Position numbers and translations under genes: made by a program. The notes beneath the pieces were generated by a model that saw only the letters and a list, made by a program, of their open reading frames with translations, did no database searches and was not told where the DNA came from. From positions 1 through 28,377 of the IMG/VR virus record IMGVR_UViG_2675903575_000014: a stretch of DNA of 28,377 bases; one strand, written 5' to 3'. Position 1 is the first letter of the stretch, and each line of letters starts with the position of its first letter. Shown one piece after another: positions 1 through 21,328 of the stretch. The stretch comes from a virus. Lineage: Duplodnaviria; Heunggongvirae; Uroviricota; Caudoviricetes.

Positions 1-1020
1 CTACTTACTGACCACAAGCGGCAAATCCAGTGTTGGTGTTATTTTGGTTTTACGATCGTAAATCAACACCTGATTTTCTGTTTTGTGTCCACTGAAAATT
101 TGTTTGTCGCGACTGCTGCCTTCGTAATCTGAAATCCCTTTGGCTTTTATGTCATGGAAGTTGCACCCAAACGGAACGCCGGCTTTTTGCTCGGCTGCAC
201 GTTTAGCCTGATTCCACCAGTTGTTCAGCGTCTTGGCTATTACCTTCCCGCCTTTGGTTGTGTTGATCACATACTCGCATGTGCCGGAAGATACATTTCG
301 GGCTAACTGGATCGCCGTACGTAATCGCGGAGACCATTCCTTGATTTGTTTAGTGCCGGTCTTGTTTTGCTCAATGTAAATCCCTTTCTCCATAATATCC
401 TGCCATTTCAGCTCGAGTACATCACCGAGCCTTGCCGCACAAAGATAGGATATCTCCATTGCAATACGTAACTGTGGAATTGCTTCCGCATATATTGCAG
501 CATACTGTTCATCGGTGATGTAAACAGTACGGGCTTTAAGTGTGAATTTTCTGACTCCTTTGCATGGATTATTTTTCACATACCCACGCTCATATCCCCA
601 TCCGTATACACGGCTCAGACTTGCCAGTTCATGGTTTGCTTGGGTCTTGCTCTCAAGTCCTCGCTTATCCATGAAAATTCTTACCTGTTCAATTTTTACA
701 TTATCAGCAAGCACTTTTCCGAATACTGCCAACAATGCCCTTTGATGTTGCCGATAATCTTTTTGGGTTCGGGGGGCCAGTTCTGTAAATGCAGGGGAGT
801 CCATAAACATGTGCCATAATTTAGCTACTGTCATTATGTTGTGGAGTTTTGCTTTTTCCAGCTCATAATTTTGCCAGACTTTAGCTACGCTGGTTTCCCG
901 CACTCTTCCGAGCCCTATAGTTCTTGTGCTTCCTTCGGGTTTCCATACGTAACTGTAACCATTCGATCTAACACGCGGTGGTAGTGCATTATCTTTTTTG
1001 TTTTTTCTTGGTCTTCCCAT
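1..1020 (-). CDS. int: Phage integrase, tyrosine recombinase family (339 aa, complete; stop at 1-3)
   Basis: Basic Arg/Lys-rich N-terminus MGRPRKNKKDN..., typical length and att-proximal position at the prophage end; 5' end overlaps the excisionase-like ORF as in lambda int/xis. Confidence 0.85.
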   Translation of the reverse strand: MGRPRKNKKDNALPPRVRSNGYSYVWKPEGSTRTIGLGRVRETSVAKVWQNYELEKAKLHNIMTVAKLWHMFMDSPAFTELAPRTQKDYRQHQRALLAVFGKVLADNVKIEQVRIFMDKRGLESKTQANHELASLSRVYGWGYERGYVKNNPCKGVRKFTLKARTVYITDEQYAAIYAEAIPQLRIAMEISYLCAARLGDVLELKWQDIMEKGIYIEQNKTGTKQIKEWSPRLRTAIQLARNVSSGTCEYVINTTKGGKVIAKTLNNWWNQAKRAAEQKAGVPFGCNFHDIKAKGISDYEGSSRDKQIFSGHKTENQVLIYDRKTKITPTLDLPLVVSK

Positions 1021-10993: not shown

Positions 10994-12874
10994 TTATCGC
11001 CCAGCAGATTTAGCAAGAATAGTCTCGAGCATTTCTGGTACGTTGCCTTTAGCATTGATAGTTGCTGTTCGGTAAGCTAGTTGATTTTTTGAGAGATTGA
11101 TTCCTGTAAGTGCTTCAATTTCGTTGCAGGCCTTACCCCATTCTACCCAGTTTTCAGACAAAAAAGATTCAAGATGATCCGCAAATATAGCAATATCATT
11201 AGTAACTGTTGCAGCTGGAAAATCCTCTTCGGGCATACCAAAGTATCTAAGCAGACTTCGATTCTCCATTGCGTGATTATTCCGCTCGGCATCGATAGCT
11301 CCCTGCATTTTATTTTTCGCTTTGGCACGAGCTTCAAAACCCGCATCTGCATCGAAAAGCGCGAAAACAGGAACGCCAATTGTACTTAGAATCGCATGGG
11401 CAAGTGGGATTGATGTCTTTGAACCTACAGGAACAATAGAGATGCCAGCGGCTTCAAGCGAGCCGTGTGACTTCCTGTCGCCAATTCCATAAAACACCGA
11501 TAATTCTGTTGTCCCTTCTACCAGAAAAGCTCTTTGGGCAAAGAGAGCTATTGAAAGCTGATCAGCTACATTATGGCCAAGCCTTCTATCAACTACTTCG
11601 GCATTAACAATTCCTTTTAATTTATCTTTGACATCTTCGATGGTTGCAAAGTGAACAGAAACAACGGGGTTTGCATCAGATGTTCGTGTCAATCGTCTAA
11701 TCTGGTTGAAATGGCGAGCTTCAAGAAAGTATGGGCTGTGAGTCGCATATGTTATCTGTATGCGCTTATCCGCATCTTCGGCGAGTTCTCTGAGTACTTT
11801 TGCAAATGCTTGTGCTTGGATCGGATGCTGAAATAATTCTGGTTCTTCGATCGCAAGGCAAATAACACCTTCGGTAGAGGCTGCACCAGACTGAGCTAAT
11901 AATTGGAGAGCAGAGATCAGTATCGTGCGTTGAAAGCCGTGCCCTTGCCTTTCGACTGCTGTTTCGGTTGTGCCATCAAGCACAGAAACTTCGAATGTGG
12001 TCTTGGGGGCCTTCAGTTCGATATTTGCAGGGGTAACTGTAACAGCACGACCGGGGGAGTAAGTCGTAACTACGGCGTTCAACTGCGCCGTCATATCCGC
12101 AAGTTGGGTTTCGAATTTTTCTTTGTAGACTTTCTGCTGCTGGACTCGGGATTCTTCAACAATCTTTGCAATTTCCTCATCTGCGGCGGTGCGATCAATC
12201 GAACGTTCAAGAATTCGACCAATAATACTCGCCTTGCCATCGAGAGACTCTTCACTGGCACGAAGATCTGCTGTTACCAAAACGTAATCAAAGAGACCGC
12301 TCATCTTGCCGCCACTGTTGAAACCGAAAAAGTTGGTTTGTAGGGATTCAAGTGCCTCATGTAGTAATTCTGTATGTGATGCTTCCCATGCAGTCATTGC
12401 TTCTTCGACAGCAAGCCCGGTCTTGGCAACGGGAAGATTGAATTCAGGATGTGCTTCTCGAAGAGCGTTGTACAAATCCTTCTTCGCTGTTGCTCCATTA
12501 GCAGCTTTAATATCGTTAAAATAAGGGAAACTTTTTGCGTTGGCAGAAAGCCTTTCTGAACCGTCGGGCGCGCGTAGCCTCCAGGCAGTGAATGTTGCTG
12601 CTCCCTGCGGAGCGTATTTGCCAAGTGCTTCACGATCTCTCTCAGTGAGGTTTGAGAAGGTAACCTGTACCTCAATATCTTTATCAATAGTTCCAAATGA
12701 GCAATCTTTTTCATTTAACATCCCGACCTTACCGTTGAAGAACCAATCAAGTGCTCGGAGAACAGTAGATTTACCTGCCCCATTCGGGCCAATGAACGTT
12801 GTAACGGAATCGAAGGGAATATTTATATCTGTCAAAGTACGAAAGTTTTTTATCCTAACGGAATGAATTTTCAT
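10994..12874 (-). CDS. OLD-family ATP-dependent nuclease (N-terminal ABC-type ATPase plus C-terminal Toprim; 626 aa); class 1 OLD or fused PARIS AriA-AriB-like
   Basis: Walker A GPNGAGKST (residues 30-38); Walker B-like VICLAIEEPELFQHP; H-loop-like YATHSPYF; C-terminal Toprim-like FLVEGTTE, VPVGSKTS and FALFDADAG. No adjacent UvrD-like helicase gene. AT-rich relative to flanking phage genes. Confidence 0.8.
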   Translation of the reverse strand: MKIHSVRIKNFRTLTDINIPFDSVTTFIGPNGAGKSTVLRALDWFFNGKVGMLNEKDCSFGTIDKDIEVQVTFSNLTERDREALGKYAPQGAATFTAWRLRAPDGSERLSANAKSFPYFNDIKAANGATAKKDLYNALREAHPEFNLPVAKTGLAVEEAMTAWEASHTELLHEALESLQTNFFGFNSGGKMSGLFDYVLVTADLRASEESLDGKASIIGRILERSIDRTAADEEIAKIVEESRVQQQKVYKEKFETQLADMTAQLNAVVTTYSPGRAVTVTPANIELKAPKTTFEVSVLDGTTETAVERQGHGFQRTILISALQLLAQSGAASTEGVICLAIEEPELFQHPIQAQAFAKVLRELAEDADKRIQITYATHSPYFLEARHFNQIRRLTRTSDANPVVSVHFATIEDVKDKLKGIVNAEVVDRRLGHNVADQLSIALFAQRAFLVEGTTELSVFYGIGDRKSHGSLEAAGISIVPVGSKTSIPLAHAILSTIGVPVFALFDADAGFEARAKAKNKMQGAIDAERNNHAMENRSLLRYFGMPEEDFPAATVTNDIAIFADHLESFLSENWVEWGKACNEIEALTGINLSKNQLAYRTATINAKGNVPEMLETILAKSAGR

Positions 12875-13596: not shown

Positions 13597-13752
13597 ATGA
13601 AGCAGCAAAAGGCGATGTTAATCGCCCTGATCGTCATCTGTTTAACCGTCATTGTGACGGCACTGGTAACGAGGAAAGACCTCTGCGAGGTACGAATCCG
13701 AACCGGCCAGACGGAGGTCGCTGTCTTCACAGCTTACGAACCTGAGGAGTAA
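13597..13752 (+). CDS. hok: Hok/Gef-family type I toxin (51 aa; MKQQKAMLIALIVICLTVIVTALVTRKDLCEVRIRTGQTEVAVFTAYEPEE)
   Basis: Single transmembrane helix followed by the conserved Cys-containing periplasmic tail typical of Hok/Gef; I recall this as matching E. coli HokD/RelF, unverified. An in-frame upstream ATG at 13540 gives a 70-aa mok-like extension. Confidence 0.85.
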   Translation: MKQQKAMLIALIVICLTVIVTALVTRKDLCEVRIRTGQTEVAVFTAYEPEE

Positions 13753-14147: not shown

Positions 14148-14165
14148 TGATGGGTATTGTGCTCT

Positions 14166-14651
14166 ATGGCTGAGATTGTTGAAGGAGTGCATTACCTTAC
14201 GGTTGATGATCTTGTTGAAATCAATCGTTCCCTAATTGAATTACAGACGCCAGATGAGCCCGTTGGTGTTCTGAGTCCAGATAACTTAAGTTCTTCTCAG
14301 GCCCGTCCCAGCATGGTTCGATGGTATGAACAGACTAATGACATGTTTGTACTGGCATCGGTATTGATTGAAAGTCTGATTCAGAATCATCCGTTTGCTA
14401 ATGCGAACAAACGAACAGCTATGATGGCTGGTTACGTCTTCTTGTTGTTGAATGGCTATGAGTTAACAGCACCAGGCGATGAAATCGTGGAAATGGCAGA
14501 GGGACTGGCCTGCAAAACCTATACTCGAGAAGATCTCGAGAACTGGTTGTGTTATTGGTCTCGCGCGTATGACAGCCGGGAATTATGTAAAACAGGCGCA
14601 ACTATTGTTTTGTATGAAACTATCAAGCTTAGAATAGAACAGCAAAACTAA
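14166..14651 (+). CDS. doc: Doc-family toxin (Fic/Doc fold, 161 aa)
   Basis: HPFANANKRTA matches the Doc signature H-x-F-x-(D/N)-(A/G)-N-K-R (P1 Doc has HIFNDANKRTA). Size is appropriate and it is followed by a terminator. Confidence 0.8.
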   Translation: MAEIVEGVHYLTVDDLVEINRSLIELQTPDEPVGVLSPDNLSSSQARPSMVRWYEQTNDMFVLASVLIESLIQNHPFANANKRTAMMAGYVFLLLNGYELTAPGDEIVEMAEGLACKTYTREDLENWLCYWSRAYDSRELCKTGATIVLYETIKLRIEQQN

Positions 14652-16108: not shown

Positions 16109-16468
16109 ATGGGGATAGAATTTGTTTTGCCTTACCCGCCGACGGTGAATACCTACTGGCGTCGTCGTGGCAGCACATATTTTGTATCAAAAGCAGGGGA
16201 GCGTTATCGCCGGGATGTGGCGCTTATTGTTCGCCAGCAGCGACTGAAATTAAATCTGTCCGGAAGGCTGGCAATAAAAATTATTGCAGAGCCGCCGGAT
16301 AAGCGCCGTCGTGACCTGGACAATATTCTGAAAGCACCACTGGATGCACTGACACATGCGGGACTGATTATCGACGATGAGCAGTTTGATGAAGTTAATA
16401 TTATGCGCGGTCAGGTTATTCCCGGTGGTCGGCTGGGGATAAAAATCACAGAACTGGAGTGCGCATGA
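16109..16468 (+). CDS. rusA: Holliday junction resolvase RusA (119 aa)
   Basis: Motifs PPTVNTYWRRRG and PDKRRRDLDNILKAPLDALTHAGLIIDD align with E. coli RusA ([23 protein letters not shown]). Confidence 0.85.
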   Translation: MGIEFVLPYPPTVNTYWRRRGSTYFVSKAGERYRRDVALIVRQQRLKLNLSGRLAIKIIAEPPDKRRRDLDNILKAPLDALTHAGLIIDDEQFDEVNIMRGQVIPGGRLGIKITELECA

Positions 16469-17130
16469 ATAACCAGTATTTACAGTTTGTGCGTGAGCAG
16501 CTCACGATCGCCACCGCTGATTTGAGTGGAGCAACAAAAGGTCAGCTTGAAGCCTGGCAGGAGAATGCCATGTTCAATACAGGGCGTTACAGACGTAAAA
16601 AAATCCGGTGCCGCGATAAGGTCACTGGAAAAATAGTAACGCTGGATAATCCACCGATCCCGGGAAAGCAATCGCTGGTGAAAGGTTCATCAATTGCCCT
16701 GGTCAGTCCGGTTGAGTTTTCGACATCATCATGGCGACGCGCCGTTCTGTCTCTTGAAGAACATCATAAAGCCTGGCTGCTGTGGTGTTACAGCGGTAGC
16801 ATTTGCTGGGAGCATCAGATCGCGATAACGCAGTGGGCGTGGACTGAATTTAATGCTCAATCCGGTACCAGAAAAATTGCAGGAAAAACTCTGGTGCGCC
16901 TGAAGACGTTGATCTGGTTGGCGGCGCAGGCGGTAAAAGCTGAGCTTTTTGGTGGGGAAGGTTACGAATACCAGGAACTGGCGTTACTGGTGGGAGTAAC
17001 AACCAAAAACTGGTCCAAGACATTTACTGGTCACTGGGTTGCAATGAAACACATTTTTCATCGGCTGGATGGTGAAGCTTTATTGTTGGTGGAGGGAACA
17101 CGTTCAAAACAAAAGGCGGCATTTTCATAG
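16465..17130 (+). CDS. Putative late-gene antiterminator (Q-like, 221 aa)
   Basis: Position immediately after rusA and before the pR'-like promoter and terminator; Cys/His/Trp-rich central region; ATGA overlap with the rusA stop. Assigned mainly by synteny. Confidence 0.55.
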   Translation: MNNQYLQFVREQLTIATADLSGATKGQLEAWQENAMFNTGRYRRKKIRCRDKVTGKIVTLDNPPIPGKQSLVKGSSIALVSPVEFSTSSWRRAVLSLEEHHKAWLLWCYSGSICWEHQIAITQWAWTEFNAQSGTRKIAGKTLVRLKTLIWLAAQAVKAELFGGEGYEYQELALLVGVTTKNWSKTFTGHWVAMKHIFHRLDGEALLLVEGTRSKQKAAFS

Positions 17131-17137
17131 CAAAGTA

Positions 17138-17166
17138 TTGCAAAAGTAGATAAAAAGGCATATATT
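17138..17166 (+). promoter_or_regulatory. Putative late promoter pR' (-35 TTGCAA, 17-bp spacer, -10 TATATT)
   Basis: Good sigma-70 hexamers directly downstream of the Q-like gene. Confidence 0.45.
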
Positions 17167-17214
17167 TCGTGTGAGTCTGATATTTTGCCGTTTTTATACG
17201 TGATGGCAAAGCTA

Positions 17215-17244
17215 GTAAAACCCGTGACCGAGCGGGTTTTTTTA
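17215..17244 (+). terminator. Putative tR' terminator
   Basis: AAAACCCG-TGACCGAG-CGGGTTTTTTTA hairpin with a T7 run, about 50 nt downstream of the putative pR'. Confidence 0.55.
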
Positions 17245-17383
17245 TCCCTAAAAAATGGCATAGACATTAAACGTGATGATGATTGTGCCAATACTTTCTC
17301 CATCAATGACGCCCCTTGACTGCATGGAATCCAATTTGTTATGTAATATGTGTTGATATTTTTGAGTTGTTAATGGTGTTACT

Positions 17384-18097
17384 ATGGATGACAGTGCTCT
17401 GCTCAGAAACTCTTCACTTTTTGTTGCTTATATGGGCTGTCTAGGATGGGGAAGCGCTTATTTCTATGGATGGGGTACTTCATTTTACTATGGCTTTCCA
17501 TGGTGGGTTGTCGGGGCTGGTGTCGATGATGTAGCACGAAGTTTGTTTTATGCTGTGACAGTTATCGTTATATTCCTTATTGGATGGGGAGTTGGTATTG
17601 TTTTCTTTTTGGGCATAAAACAAAAGCGCAATATACAAAATTTGAGTTTTATCCGGCTTTTTCTCGCGATATTGCTGCTTTTTATTCCACCTGTTCTGGA
17701 GTTTTCGGTAATTCATCAGCATGTTGAGCCAGATGTACTGATTTTCTGCATTCTTGCTGCCTTTACAATCACGCTTTTTGTCAGGTTTGGAAGAAGACTT
17801 GTTTCAGTCAAATGTTTTTCGGAAATGTCTTTTATTCGTCATCACCGAATTGAGTTCATGATGGCTGGGTTTATGATTTATTTCTGGGCATTCTCTCTTA
17901 TTGCCGGTTGGTACAAACCACAGTTTAAGAGGGAATATCAGGCGATCCACTATGAGAATGTATGGTATTACATTATTGCGCGTTATGATGATCGTCTGGT
18001 GTTATCGAAATCATACAGGAGTGGGGGTAAGAAATTCGTTATATTTAATAGCGGAAATATTAATGATTTTGAAATTAATACAGTCAGAGTGCGTTAA
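17384..18097 (+). CDS. Hypothetical polytopic membrane protein (237 aa), AT-rich late-region moron
   Basis: Five or six predicted hydrophobic helices, rich in Trp/Tyr/Phe; AT-rich codon usage unlike flanking genes; sits where lambdoid phages carry cargo such as stx. Confidence 0.6.
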   Translation: MDDSALLRNSSLFVAYMGCLGWGSAYFYGWGTSFYYGFPWWVVGAGVDDVARSLFYAVTVIVIFLIGWGVGIVFFLGIKQKRNIQNLSFIRLFLAILLLFIPPVLEFSVIHQHVEPDVLIFCILAAFTITLFVRFGRRLVSVKCFSEMSFIRHHRIEFMMAGFMIYFWAFSLIAGWYKPQFKREYQAIHYENVWYYIIARYDDRLVLSKSYRSGGKKFVIFNSGNINDFEINTVRVR

Positions 18098-18270
18098 AAT
18101 TTCTTGAGTAACAAAGATTTTTACCGCCCGCCATTGAGAGGTTTTTTATGCCAGAAAAATGGTTCGGTACATAAAATGTGCAGGTGGTTATTAATACCGG
18201 TCTTTCAGCTTGCTGGCTTTTTCGACAAGAGTTATTGGTATGTCACGTTAACCAATAAAGAGAAAAAGAC

Positions 18271-18468
18271 ATGCTAAAACAGCAGGATATGACCGAAACA
18301 GCCAGAGTGGTGTTTAATGAATTAAGCGTCACTGAACCGGCAACAGTTGGGGAAATTGCGCAGAATACTTACCTTTCACGCGAACGCTGTCAGTTAATAC
18401 TGACCCAGCTTGTTATGGCGGGTCTGGCAGATTATCAGTTCGGTTGTTACAGACGCCTTCCGCAGTGA
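18271..18468 (+). CDS. Hypothetical small protein (65 aa), possible winged-helix regulator
   Basis: AAGAGAAAAAGAC then ATG; the TVGEIAQNTYLSRERCQLILTQL segment resembles an HTH recognition helix. Confidence 0.4.
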   Translation: MLKQQDMTETARVVFNELSVTEPATVGEIAQNTYLSRERCQLILTQLVMAGLADYQFGCYRRLPQ

Positions 18469-18618
18469 AGGTTTTTTCATTTGTGGTAATGGGCGGCTGG
18501 TGGGTGTTAGCGGCACCTGCCAGCCATCTGCTCATGCGTTAGGGTCACAAGCAAACCTCAGGCCCATCTGCTTTGCGCAAAAGCGGTATGAGCCTATCAG
18601 AGAAGTGCTTATTGATCT

Positions 18619-19704
18619 ATGGTTGATACTGTAAAAATATCCAGTTGTGAGTTAATCAACGCTGATTGCCTGGAATTTATCCAGACCTTACCGGAAAACT
18701 CTGTCGATCTGATAGTCACAGACCCGCCATACTTTAAAGTGAAGCCCGAGGGCTGGGATAACCAGTGGAAGGGCGACGATGATTACCTGAAATGGCTGGA
18801 TCAGTGTCTGGCTCAGTTCTGGCGGGTACTGAAACCTGCCGGAAGTCTCTACCTGTTCTGTGGTCATCGCCTGGCATCTGACACCGAAATCATGATGCGT
18901 GAGCGCTTTAATGTGCTGAACCACATTATCTGGGCGAAGCCATCCGGACGCTGGAACGGGTGCAACAAAGAAAGCCTGCGGGCGTATTTCCCGGCAACAG
19001 AGCGCATTCTGTTTGCCGAACATTATCAGGGGCCATACCAGCCAAAAAATGATGGCTATGCGGCAAAGGAGCGCGAGCTTAAACAACACGTCATGGCCCC
19101 GCTGATTTCTTACTTCCGTGATGCGCGTGAATCACTGGGGATAACGTCCAAACAGATAGCGGAAGCCACCGGAAAGAAAAACATGGTGTCGCACTGGTTT
19201 GGTACCTGTCAGTGGCAGTTACCGAACGAAGCTGATTACAGAAAACTGCAGGCGCTGTTCGCGTGTGTTGCAGAAGAAAAGCACCAGCGTGGGGAGCTGG
19301 CAACGCCACACCAGCAACTGGTCAGCACATACAGTGAACTGAACCGGCAATATGCCAGTCTGCTTGAGGAATACAAATCTCTGCGGCGTTATTTTTCTGT
19401 ATCGGCCGCCGTTCCTTATACGGACGTCTGGACGCATAAGCCCGTGCAGTATTATCCGGGTAAGCATCCCTGCGAAAAACCGGCGGATATGTTGCGTCAG
19501 ATAATTTCTGCCAGCAGTCGTCCGGGGGATGTGGTTGCGGATTTTTTTATGGGATCGGGGGCAACAATAAAAGCAGCAATGGGATTGGGGCGTCGCACGA
19601 TTGGGGTTGAACTTGAGTCCGGGCGTTTTGAACAAACAGTTGGTGAAATATTGGTGCTGAACGATAAATTGCGAAATGCACAATTAGATAAGAACAGGAG
19701 CTAA
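18619..19704 (+). CDS. Orphan DNA methyltransferase (N6-adenine/N4-cytosine, beta class; 361 aa)
   Basis: DPPY catalytic motif near the N-terminus (TDPPYF) and an AdoMet-binding FxGxG motif near the C-terminus (DFFMGSGAT); no adjacent restriction endonuclease candidate. Confidence 0.85.
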   Translation: MVDTVKISSCELINADCLEFIQTLPENSVDLIVTDPPYFKVKPEGWDNQWKGDDDYLKWLDQCLAQFWRVLKPAGSLYLFCGHRLASDTEIMMRERFNVLNHIIWAKPSGRWNGCNKESLRAYFPATERILFAEHYQGPYQPKNDGYAAKERELKQHVMAPLISYFRDARESLGITSKQIAEATGKKNMVSHWFGTCQWQLPNEADYRKLQALFACVAEEKHQRGELATPHQQLVSTYSELNRQYASLLEEYKSLRRYFSVSAAVPYTDVWTHKPVQYYPGKHPCEKPADMLRQIISASSRPGDVVADFFMGSGATIKAAMGLGRRTIGVELESGRFEQTVGEILVLNDKLRNAQLDKNRS

Positions 19705-20222
19705 TCCTCGATTAATATCTAAGCCAAGCAGGATGCTAGGAAGTTCTGATATATTCTGATCGTTTTTCGATGCTTTAAAATGATTTGTGCTGGTTGCGAA
19801 AGCACGTGGTCGGGCACTGCGTTCACGCATCTGGAGGGTGTGAAGCCAGCTTTTTTGTGTGTATTCAGATGGCGTTCTGATTCTATAACGAGTTACGTGG
19901 ACATCAGGGATGGAGAGAATAGGAACGCCATCTTAATACATTTTCCCCGTTTATTTGATATATCTTCCGGATAAGGGATTAGGTCTGGTTTTTTATGTCA
20001 TTCAATAACGCTCTTCTATACTGTATACAATACTTTATCCTGGCAGTGTGTTTAAAACCTGAACTTATCCTTTGTTTCGTTTATAGACAGAAGGGCTAAT
20101 GTCGACTTATCATCAGCAGGATGGCAATAGATGTGTAAGTAGCTGGTCACCAGCTATACTTCAGTGGTACTTCTGAGTGCTTCTCTCCGTGAAATGATTA
20201 TCATCCAGATGGCAGGAGTAGA

Positions 20223-20501
20223 GTGAATATTGATGATATTTCCAGGTGCTCCAGCTTGTTGCAGCGTATTGAGGATGTTAATGCTGAACGAGCCAGGGCC
20301 TTTAGTCGTTTGACAGTTATATTTTCTACCCCTGATCGCCTTTCAGGAAAGAACATTGTTTTATTAAACAGTGATGCCATCCATAAGGTTTTTGAAGAGT
20401 TCATGGCTGCTAATTCAGAATTGCTGGCTCTTGTTGAGGAATACAACGAGATAGCCAGCCGTGTCGGTATGGATGAATTCAACGTCATACTTCGTGGATA
20501 A
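20223..20501 (+). CDS. Hypothetical protein (92 aa)
   Basis: ORF (probably GTG start) followed at 20525-20548 by a strong intrinsic terminator. Confidence 0.4.
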   Translation: MNIDDISRCSSLLQRIEDVNAERARAFSRLTVIFSTPDRLSGKNIVLLNSDAIHKVFEEFMAANSELLALVEEYNEIASRVGMDEFNVILRG

Positions 20502-20524
20502 AAACATGCTTCATATTTTCTGTT

Positions 20525-20548
20525 AGCTCGCTACTGCGAGCTTTTTTG
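20525..20548 (+). terminator. Rho-independent terminator
   Basis: AGCTCGC-TACT-GCGAGCT followed by TTTTTT. Confidence 0.55.
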
Positions 20549-20859
20549 TATCTGAGCCACATCAGGCGCACATCAAAAACACAGAGCCTTTCAGGGCGGG
20601 GAGGGGGCTCTTGCCGTTACACCGTAATGCAAAATAACAGCATACAAAAGGTATCGGTGATGGTTGTTATTGGTGTGGTTTATTAAAAAAGTGTAAGAAA
20701 ATTATGAGCGTTGTAGTTGAACAAAATGGTGAAATTGTATGAGCTCGGCATAATGAAAGTTCTGAAGGTATTGCCTGCACACGCTGTGTAAAGGACGGCA
20801 CGCAACTGCGACTCGTTGCCGTCCTTGAGGACGCATTTACTCAGGCTAAAGGCGAGTTG

Positions 20860-21195
20860 CTATGCTGGGATGACGGAAATGGAGTGCCGAATAGCTGCAC
20901 TTCCGCCTCCTAAATCAATTGTAATATTCCAGTAACCTGAATGCGGTACATGAAGGTGGGCCGGTAATCTCTGAAAAAAACCGCCACCACCGTGATGATG
21001 AAAGCTTCTTGCGTTGCGGTAGTTATTAAAGTTTGTATCTGTCATCAGCAAAATATTGCACTGATGAGAGCAGTCAACCACTACCGTATCTCCTGCATTT
21101 AAATGCATTCTTTTATGTAAAAACTGCATGTGATTTCCCTGATCAGAGGTAATCAGCCATCCCTCTTTCTCTATGATGAGCCAGCGTCCCACCAC
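20860..21195 (-). CDS. Hypothetical protein (111 aa) with His/Gly-rich tract
   Basis: Minus-strand ORF just upstream of the lysis cassette; contains HHHGGGG; a stem-loop (20791-20828) lies downstream. Confidence 0.45.
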   Translation of the reverse strand: MVGRWLIIEKEGWLITSDQGNHMQFLHKRMHLNAGDTVVVDCSHQCNILLMTDTNFNNYRNARSFHHHGGGGFFQRLPAHLHVPHSGYWNITIDLGGGSAAIRHSISVIPA

Positions 21196-21328
21196 TGGCG
21201 GGCTGAATGCTTAACATATCCAGGGTTCAGAAAACGGTAAACCCTGATAAATATCCATATCTTCAAACGTTAATAAAATGTCAGTTACGGGGCCGCTGAT
21301 GGTCCTTTTTATTTACAGGAGAATAAAT

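Follow-up and report, generated by a model that had tools for sequence, protein, structure and literature searches.

The closest described relatives of the membrane protein considered here are TfpB of Moraxella bovis and Moraxella lacunata and STM1630 of Salmonella; STM1630 is the only family member with phenotype data, and these show no robust phenotype. It has been reported that STM1630 is grouped with genes co-regulated with Salmonella pathogenicity island 2 (SPI-2) (PMC2639726). The gene is expressed in macrophages and has its own promoter, in which two single-nucleotide polymorphisms of the -10 element silence it in ST313, and its deletion has no effect on intramacrophage replication (bioRxiv 10.1101/689075). 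In addition, an STM1630 deletion was hypermotile in one screen (PMC4219756), and STM1630 was among the genes re-tested with clean deletions in a follow-up study (PMC4534456). A further relative is CPT_434_68 of phage 434, annotated as "putative membrane protein". The window, which is the whole stretch of 28,377 nucleotides analysed here (IMG/VR virus record IMGVR_UViG_2675903575_000014), is a lambdoid (Rac/Qin-like) Escherichia coli prophage running from integrase to terminase, and it carries a gene for a 237-residue inner-membrane protein of this family in a mobile AT-rich cassette inserted at or exactly after the late terminator tR', downstream of the antiterminator gene Q.

The assignment of the 237-residue protein to the TfpB/STM1630 family of inner-membrane proteins (PF27470, phrog_1521) is solid. 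The protein matches phrog_1521 over residues 17-237 (E 9.6e-85), RefSeq lists the identical protein, WP_000342735.1, as "STM1630 family protein", and PF27470 ("TfpB") is a precomputed match on every homolog found. Direct scans of the protein against Pfam, NCBIfam and PADLOC gave no match, the Pfam release scanned being older than PF27470. A set of 5.8 billion proteins contains 104 homologs, and at least 1000 public contigs carry the exact 237-residue sequence. When 1.84 billion representatives were searched exhaustively with a profile, only 75 matched, so the TfpB family is small. Pairwise ratios of nonsynonymous to synonymous substitution (dN/dS) of 0.12-0.21 against the homologs of uropathogenic E. 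coli (UPEC) 26-1, the heat-labile enterotoxin (LT) plasmid, phage 434 and O157 indicate purifying selection, and these ratios, together with the phrog_1521 match, the homologs and the contigs, identify the open reading frame (ORF) as a real gene. Both the family and the cassette are already catalogued, in RefSeq as identical proteins, in Pfam and PHROGs as a family and in phage 434 as an annotated gene, and the window holds one more copy.

The link to Moraxella was obtained with a profile built from relatives of the window protein, which recovered the Moraxella tfpB loci. Their cluster carries the source name "protein tfpB" and contains a member which we take to be the tfpB ORF of the pilin inversion region of Fulks et al. 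(1990). TfpB of M. bovis and M. lacunata and STM1630 are full-length homologs of the window protein, which is 48% identical to Salmonella STM1630 and 26-31% identical to the Moraxella, Pasteurellaceae and Neisseriaceae proteins. They share with it the N-terminal signature AY.YGWG..YYG.PWW...ARSL, five transmembrane helices and a C-terminal beta domain, and the family architecture of an N-terminal aromatic/glycine motif, five transmembrane helices and a C-terminal beta domain of about 60 residues was accordingly found in the window protein. The locations differ: the Moraxella gene lies inside a pilin inversion segment and STM1630 beside sseJ, whereas the window copy is a moron of a prophage late region. 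In M. lacunata, tfpB separates the piv invertase gene and a partial pilin segment from the expressed pilin gene. The tfpB product is truncated to 195-197 residues in M. lacunata and M. equi, compared with the full-length 261 residues in M. bovis, which argues against an essential role in piliation. In the genome scan, family members were found in M. bovis, M. lacunata, M. equi and M. oblonga; in the Pasteurellaceae genera Aggregatibacter, Glaesserella, Actinobacillus, Pasteurella, Avibacterium and Mannheimia; in the Neisseriaceae Conchiformibius, Neisseria animaloris, N. zoodegmatis and Uruburuella; and in Salmonella, Citrobacter, Klebsiella, Enterobacter, Cronobacter and Yersinia.

A first-pass annotation of the window, made from the sequence alone, had described two ORFs at this site, an AT-rich gene for a polytopic, aromatic-rich protein of 237 residues and a smaller gene for a 65-residue protein. 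Both were recovered at the coordinates it gave, on the plus strand and with ATG starts (Table 1), and the description of the larger one holds. The gene has 38.9% GC and 36.1% GC at third codon positions, compared with 47.5-53.7% GC in the flanking genes (Q 48.8%, RusA 49.7%, DUF968 53.7%, the 65-residue ORF 47.5% and the methyltransferase 50.4%) and a window average of 48.0%, and phenylalanine, tryptophan and tyrosine make up 20.3% of the residues of the protein. Hydropathy and an AlphaFold2 model agree on five transmembrane helices at residues 10-36, 47-78, 89-111, 116-138 and 155-180. The model rests on a 63-sequence alignment, with a predicted local distance difference test score (pLDDT) of 77 and a predicted template-modelling score (pTM) of 0.71; an earlier alignment of 27 close homologs had given a pLDDT of 60, which the distant relatives raised to 77. 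It places five strands at residues 184-235, which form an SH3-like beta domain. Counts of lysine plus arginine over the 63 sequences indicate a cytoplasmic location for the N-terminus and for loops 2 and 4; loop 1, which is aromatic and acidic (YYGFPWWVVGAGVDD), loop 3 and the C-terminal domain are assigned to the periplasm. The predicted topology is thus a cytoplasmic N-terminus, five transmembrane helices and a periplasmic SH3-like C-terminal domain, with YYGFPWW..DD as the conserved aromatic motif of a periplasmic loop.

No enzyme motif or conserved catalytic residue was found in the family alignments, the AlphaFold2 model had no fold match in PDB or BFVD, and the family profile matched no PDB sequence. 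Similarly, PADLOC-DB 2.0 assigned the protein to no defence family at E <= 0.1. For the roles that the first-pass annotation had put forward for such membrane-protein morons (superinfection exclusion, abortive infection or host fitness), neither the PADLOC and fold searches nor the STM1630 phenotypes gave support. Scattered single Pfam matches among the 63 members, such as TraS and bPH_10, were dismissed as noise. In one swine E. coli genome (NZ_CP062203.1), the same gene (99.6% identity) is split by an IS1 element, and it is therefore dispensable for that host.

That the region is a mobile moron cassette inserted at or exactly after tR' is likewise solid, as an empty site shows. In a prophage of E. 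coli O145 RM8988, a Q-PR'-tR' segment of the same type is joined directly to the 65-residue ORF; its homology with the window covers 16700-17245 and picks up again at 18142, which delimits an insert of about 896 bp. The insert coincides with a trough in GC content (about 0.37-0.41 inside and 0.49-0.55 outside). The same cassette is present in a UPEC 26-1 prophage, with 86% nucleotide identity over window positions 17221-18112, where it lies 3' of an unrelated antiterminator of 273 residues and 5' of four tRNA genes and a holin gene; since the antiterminator is a different one, the cassette moves as a unit. At its left boundary, the segment 17172-17248 with the tR' hairpin folds at -22.4 kcal/mol (z -2.9), and none of 200 shuffled sequences was equally stable. 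The right boundary carries a decayed second copy of the tR' stem and U-tract that resembles the terminator of the empty site, CTGCCGCCAGGCGGTTTTTTTATG; RNA folding gave no stable structure for this copy at 18122-18149. The repeat GGTTTTTT is present at 17235 and at 18140, so the cassette is bracketed by GGTTTTTT(T)AT at both ends. Presence or absence between genes that are adjacent in relatives and deviant composition, two marks of a moron in the sense of Hendrix and Juhala, were thus both found. For a further mark, a promoter and a terminator belonging to the moron itself, the cassette offers a candidate promoter block (see below) and, at its 3' end, only the decayed terminator copy without a stable fold. 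Two further ORFs, of 42 residues at 17316-17444 and of 57 residues at 18104-18277, were treated as spurious and have no family support. The TfpB-family ORF is the sole content of the post-Q cassette, in which no toxin gene of the Stx or LT type was found.

The first-pass annotation had taken both genes as inserted downstream of Q and tR'. For the membrane-protein gene the empty site bears this out, while the 65-residue ORF belongs to the flank: the junction in O145 RM8988, its identity with phiP27 L23 and its constant linkage to the methyltransferase gene rule it out as part of the insert. The winged-helix gene and the methyltransferase gene are, with solid support, a module separate from the cassette, and this module is proposed to be the older of the two. 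The further proposal that the cassette occupies the stx position of Shiga toxin (Stx) phages is right only approximately, because in phiP27 the stx2e genes lie downstream of the methyltransferase gene and the tRNA genes, and a GIY-YIG gene occupies the slot after Q.

The cassette may also carry its own promoter. The TTGACT noted near 17316 sits at 17316-17321, within a block conserved among homologous cassettes, CTCTTGAC(T/G)GCAT.GAAT...TTTGTTATG, which is common to the window, UPEC 26-1, phage 434, Escherichia sp. and the LT plasmid. On the LT plasmid, similarity to the phage cassettes starts at the -35 element. Since the block is conserved and retained in the plasmid copy, it supports an autonomous promoter, TTGACT-N18-TATGTA with an upstream TG, which we infer from the sequence. 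The consensus promoter scan did not call the block at 17316-17345, and its -10 element is imperfect, which weakens this reading; the promoter is therefore given here as a putative one. By established lambdoid biology, a gene placed just past tR' would also be driven by Q antitermination after induction.

Family members recur in the same phage position. In about 70 of 80 IMG/VR loci, the TfpB-family gene lies 210-260 bp 3' of Q as the first gene after the antiterminator, and the antiterminators concerned belong to at least four families; the remaining loci examined are degraded (e.g., hokD, about 1 kb, TfpB). On the 3' side of the gene, 40 of the 80 loci have the 65-residue ORF and the methyltransferase gene, and in the others a holin gene, DUF3927 or an esterase gene takes that place. 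A homolog detectable at the DNA level is present in about 1197 of 5426 complete E. coli genomes (about 22%), O157:H7 included, in up to four places per genome; DNA nearly identical to window positions 17100-18650 is present in 179 of the 5426, many of them porcine enterotoxigenic E. coli (ETEC) or bovine isolates. CPT_434_68 of phage 434 is 55.7% identical to the window protein and directly follows a Q82-like Q gene and terminator. The O157:H7 prophage orthologue (WP_001302581.1) occupies the same post-Q slot, in the order lpxR-ylcG-Q-TfpB-DUF3927-holin. The upstream TTGAC block is conserved in both of these copies and in that of the window. They differ on the 3' side: in phage 434 and O157, the genes after TfpB are those for DUF3927/TciB, for small membrane proteins and for an esterase or holin, whereas the window has the winged-helix and methyltransferase module of the phiP27 type. 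The lpxR gene lies just 5' of ylcG-Q-TfpB in both the phage 434 and the O157:H7 prophages, and in Citrobacter rodentium a split lpxR abuts a chromosomal TfpB copy, which suggests that the C. rodentium islet is what is left of the Q region of a prophage.

In addition, the family is found outside phages. ETEC plasmids carry a 75%-identical copy about 870 bp from eltAB, in divergent orientation and with estB/astA nearby, and the contig index lists the LT-plasmid protein in 1285 blocks; tblastn gave matches on 106 Shigella and 12 Klebsiella plasmids. Chromosomal copies adjoin sseJ in Salmonella arizonae, cdtABC in Glaesserella parasuis and an RTX-type HlyB/HlyD exporter in Mesocricetibacter. The toxin and effector neighbours of family genes span four genera. 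In the Pasteurellaceae and Neisseriaceae loci examined, a lone TfpB-family gene stands amid housekeeping genes. A subfamily of Klebsiella and Enterobacter, about 20% identical, forms a SRAP(YedK)-TfpB-umuC/umuD module near prophage integrase or excisionase and resolvase genes, with a reverse transcriptase at one locus. The first-pass annotation had named homology to a conserved structural phage component as one finding that would overturn its view of the gene as accessory cargo; the family is not of that kind, because homologs also occur on plasmids and at non-phage chromosomal sites.

The reading that we favour, with a probability of roughly 0.35 and thus tentatively, is that the TfpB-family protein is an envelope protein expressed in the lysogen that gives exclusion or immunity at the envelope. 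In the lysogen, the conserved TTGAC-type promoter of the cassette would give weak transcription of the gene, and after induction the gene would be transcribed strongly by Q-modified RNA polymerase reading through tR', since it is the first gene that this polymerase reaches past the terminator. The protein would act by binding rather than catalysis at the interface of inner membrane and periplasm, which is most likely because the family lacks a catalytic signature and the face that it conserves is directed to the periplasm. No phage-encoded partner would be needed, because single-gene copies occur on ETEC LT plasmids, on Salmonella and Citrobacter chromosomes and in the housekeeping contexts of Pasteurellaceae and Neisseriaceae. 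The carrier cell would be protected either by exclusion of superinfecting phages at the DNA-entry step or by immunity to another agent that targets the envelope. The cassette resembles the classical lambdoid morons and superinfection-exclusion membrane proteins (HK97 gp15, P22 SieA, T4 Imm and lambda RexB) in being a compositionally distinct single gene for an inner-membrane protein, with a promoter-like element and an insertion point between genes that are neighbours in related phages. The accessory clusters at Klebsiella and Enterobacter prophage ends, with umuDC and, at one locus, a reverse transcriptase, are a typical place for defence genes and morons and were counted in favour of this reading. 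On the other side, the protein has no sequence or fold similarity to HK97 gp15, P22 SieA, T4 Imm or lambda RexB and no PADLOC match.

The contexts outside phages bear most directly on a role in host interaction, that is, lysogenic conversion by an envelope protein that aids mucosal colonisation or intracellular life or is tied to the neighbouring toxin and effector genes. The named carriers (Enterobacteriaceae, Pasteurellaceae, Neisseriaceae and Moraxella) are nearly all associated with animals, homologs adjoin eltAB, cdtABC, the HlyB/HlyD exporter and sseJ, and the Shigella plasmid matches fit, as do the expression of STM1630 in macrophages and its clustering with genes co-regulated with SPI-2. 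However, deletion of STM1630 leaves intramacrophage replication unchanged, adjacency to toxin genes may merely reflect shared AT-rich insertion hot spots, the toxins concerned are exported by unrelated routes, and no toxin lies near the gene in phage 434 and in many commensal prophages, so we consider such a role rather unlikely. A wider proposal, that TfpB/STM1630 constitutes a new class of single-gene envelope protein borne by mobile elements, either an exclusion or immunity factor or a factor coupled to toxins and effectors, would explain both the position as first Q-dependent late gene after at least four unrelated antiterminators and the recurrence at eltAB, cdtABC, sseJ, the RTX exporter and the Moraxella pilin switch; we hold it to be doubtful. 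A phage late function, in which the protein tunes lysis timing or membrane physiology (e.g., as an antiholin-like or holin-modulating protein), would suit a polytopic inner-membrane protein whose gene is consistently the first past Q and tR' and 5' of the holin and endolysin genes. Yet the gene is missing from close prophages with the same Q and lysis genes, the lysis cassettes downstream vary freely, and the single-gene copies on plasmids and at non-phage chromosomal sites are under purifying selection, which makes a lysis function quite improbable.

It is also conceivable, although very unlikely, that the family consists of accessory proteins of type IV pili or pseudopilins that tune the filaments of type IV pili or of the type II secretion system (T2SS) and could thereby also stop phages that depend on pili or alter the secretion of LT. 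In Moraxella, the gene of the founding member is flanked by piv and the pilin genes within the pilin inversion segment; a distant member lies two genes from a protein of the N_methyl prepilin type, many carrier taxa are piliated and naturally competent, and LT, the neighbour of the plasmid copy, is secreted by the T2SS, as is well established. Nevertheless, among 27 genome loci only the Moraxella copies have a prepilin-motif gene within 6 kb, the M. lacunata and M. equi copies are truncated, and no prepilin N-methylation motif occurs anywhere in the window; as a pilin accessory gene, the window gene was rejected on the last ground and on the restriction of pilin adjacency to Moraxella. TfpY, TfpZ, TfpX and FimB of Pseudomonas and Dichelobacter are likewise small polytopic inner-membrane proteins, of about 235-245 residues, with a periplasmic C-terminal domain and in some cases a pilin link (PMC11841053). 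The architecture described for TfpY, TfpZ and FimB, three transmembrane helices and a periplasmic mixed sheet (PMC11841053), sets them apart from the window protein with its five helices and five-strand domain, and the exhaustive profile search did not recover them among its 75 representatives.

If the protein is shown to act in exclusion of phages, immunity of the envelope or interaction with the host, thousands of prophages and the ETEC and Shigella plasmids would be annotated at once. The family is widespread, recurs by major toxin genes and is present in the classical lambdoid phage 434, and no position of the late operon is induced more strongly than the cassette slot, which lies in the region that makes Stx expression dependent on induction in Stx phages.

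Table 1. Coordinates and supporting evidence for the cassette, its flanks and the first gene of the window.
Feature	Position	Strand	Evidence or remark
Integrase	1-1020	-	First gene of the window
Q late-gene antiterminator (Q82/434-like)	16459-17130	+	PF06323 Phage_antiter_Q, E 2e-89
Putative PR'-like late promoter (TTGCAA-17-TATATT)	17138-17166	+	Consensus scan match
tR'-type intrinsic terminator, hairpin AAAACCCGU..GCGGGUUUU and U-tract	17216-17245	+	Left boundary of the insert
Mobile AT-rich cassette (moron), about 896 bp, with the TfpB-family gene	17246-18141	+	Empty-site comparison
Conserved promoter-like block TTGACT-N18-TATGTA, preceded by TG	17316-17345	+	Shared among homologous cassettes
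TfpB/STM1630-family inner-membrane protein, 237 residues, ATG start	17384-18097	+	phrog_1521; PF27470 on homologs; AlphaFold2 model
Decayed second copy of tR' stem and U-tract (CCGCCCGCC..AGGTTTTTTATG)	18122-18149	+	Right boundary of the insert
Winged-helix (TrmB/MarR-like) protein, 65 residues, ATG start	18271-18468	+	phrog_331, E 1.4e-37; flanking module, outside the insert
Terminator-like hairpin and T-run, overlapping the stop codon of the 65-residue ORF	18455-18482	+	Only terminator-like site called by the scan of 16900-18800
Orphan N6/N4 DNA methyltransferase	18619-19704	+	PF01555, E 1.5e-42; PADLOC MTase_II, E 8e-153

As shown in Table 1, the late control region has the Q-PR'-tR' layout that is standard in lambdoid phages. 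The label of the PR'-like site fits, as the site lies between Q and the terminator, and the Q region has 74.5% nucleotide identity with its phage 434 counterpart. On the far side of the cassette, the 65-residue protein is 100% identical to phiP27 L23 (P27p23) and 94-98% identical to the SfV and Stx2-phage copies, and the gene and that of the methyltransferase always occur together in phiP27, SfV and Stx2 phages. A possible helix-turn-helix had been suggested for this protein; the matches to TrmB (E 0.0026; 18.0 bits against a cut-off of 25.6), MarR_2 (E 0.036; 14.7 bits against 27) and HTH_24 (E 0.091) are weak and all below the Pfam cut-offs, yet consistent with it, and its homologs are called "TrmB family transcriptional regulator" in RefSeq. 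The 65-residue protein had no sequence match in the PDB, and the fold of the hairpin at 18455-18482 was no better than that of shuffled sequences.

In the remainder of the prophage, the integrase gene is followed by genes for a RecE-like exonuclease, a CI-type repressor, YdaT, DnaT/O-like and P replication proteins and DUF1627, and then by an OLD-family nuclease gene, hokD, a Fic/DOC gene, DUF968, RusA and Q, after which comes the cassette region. On its 3' side lie the DNA methyltransferase gene, a DUF1883 gene on the minus strand, two holin genes, a GH108 endolysin gene, Nu1 and gpA. The interval between the methyltransferase and holin genes (19705-21277) holds only an ORF of 92 residues with no family (20223-20501) and the DUF1883 gene (20860-21195, minus strand); no tRNA gene was found in the whole window, and phiP27 has tRNA genes and stx2e in the matching interval. 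In the early region, the OLD-family nuclease of 626 residues is encoded on the opposite strand (10994-12874, minus) and combines an AAA_15 match (E 7e-43) with an OLD-like TOPRIM match (E 2.6e-15); it is likely to be an anti-phage defence moron. The hokD gene lies at 13597-13752 and the ORF with a Fic/DOC domain at 14157-14651 (E 7e-12). A stretch of about 880 bp between hokD and DUF968, which includes the Fic/DOC ORF, is missing from an otherwise collinear prophage, and this interval is therefore a second variable cargo slot.

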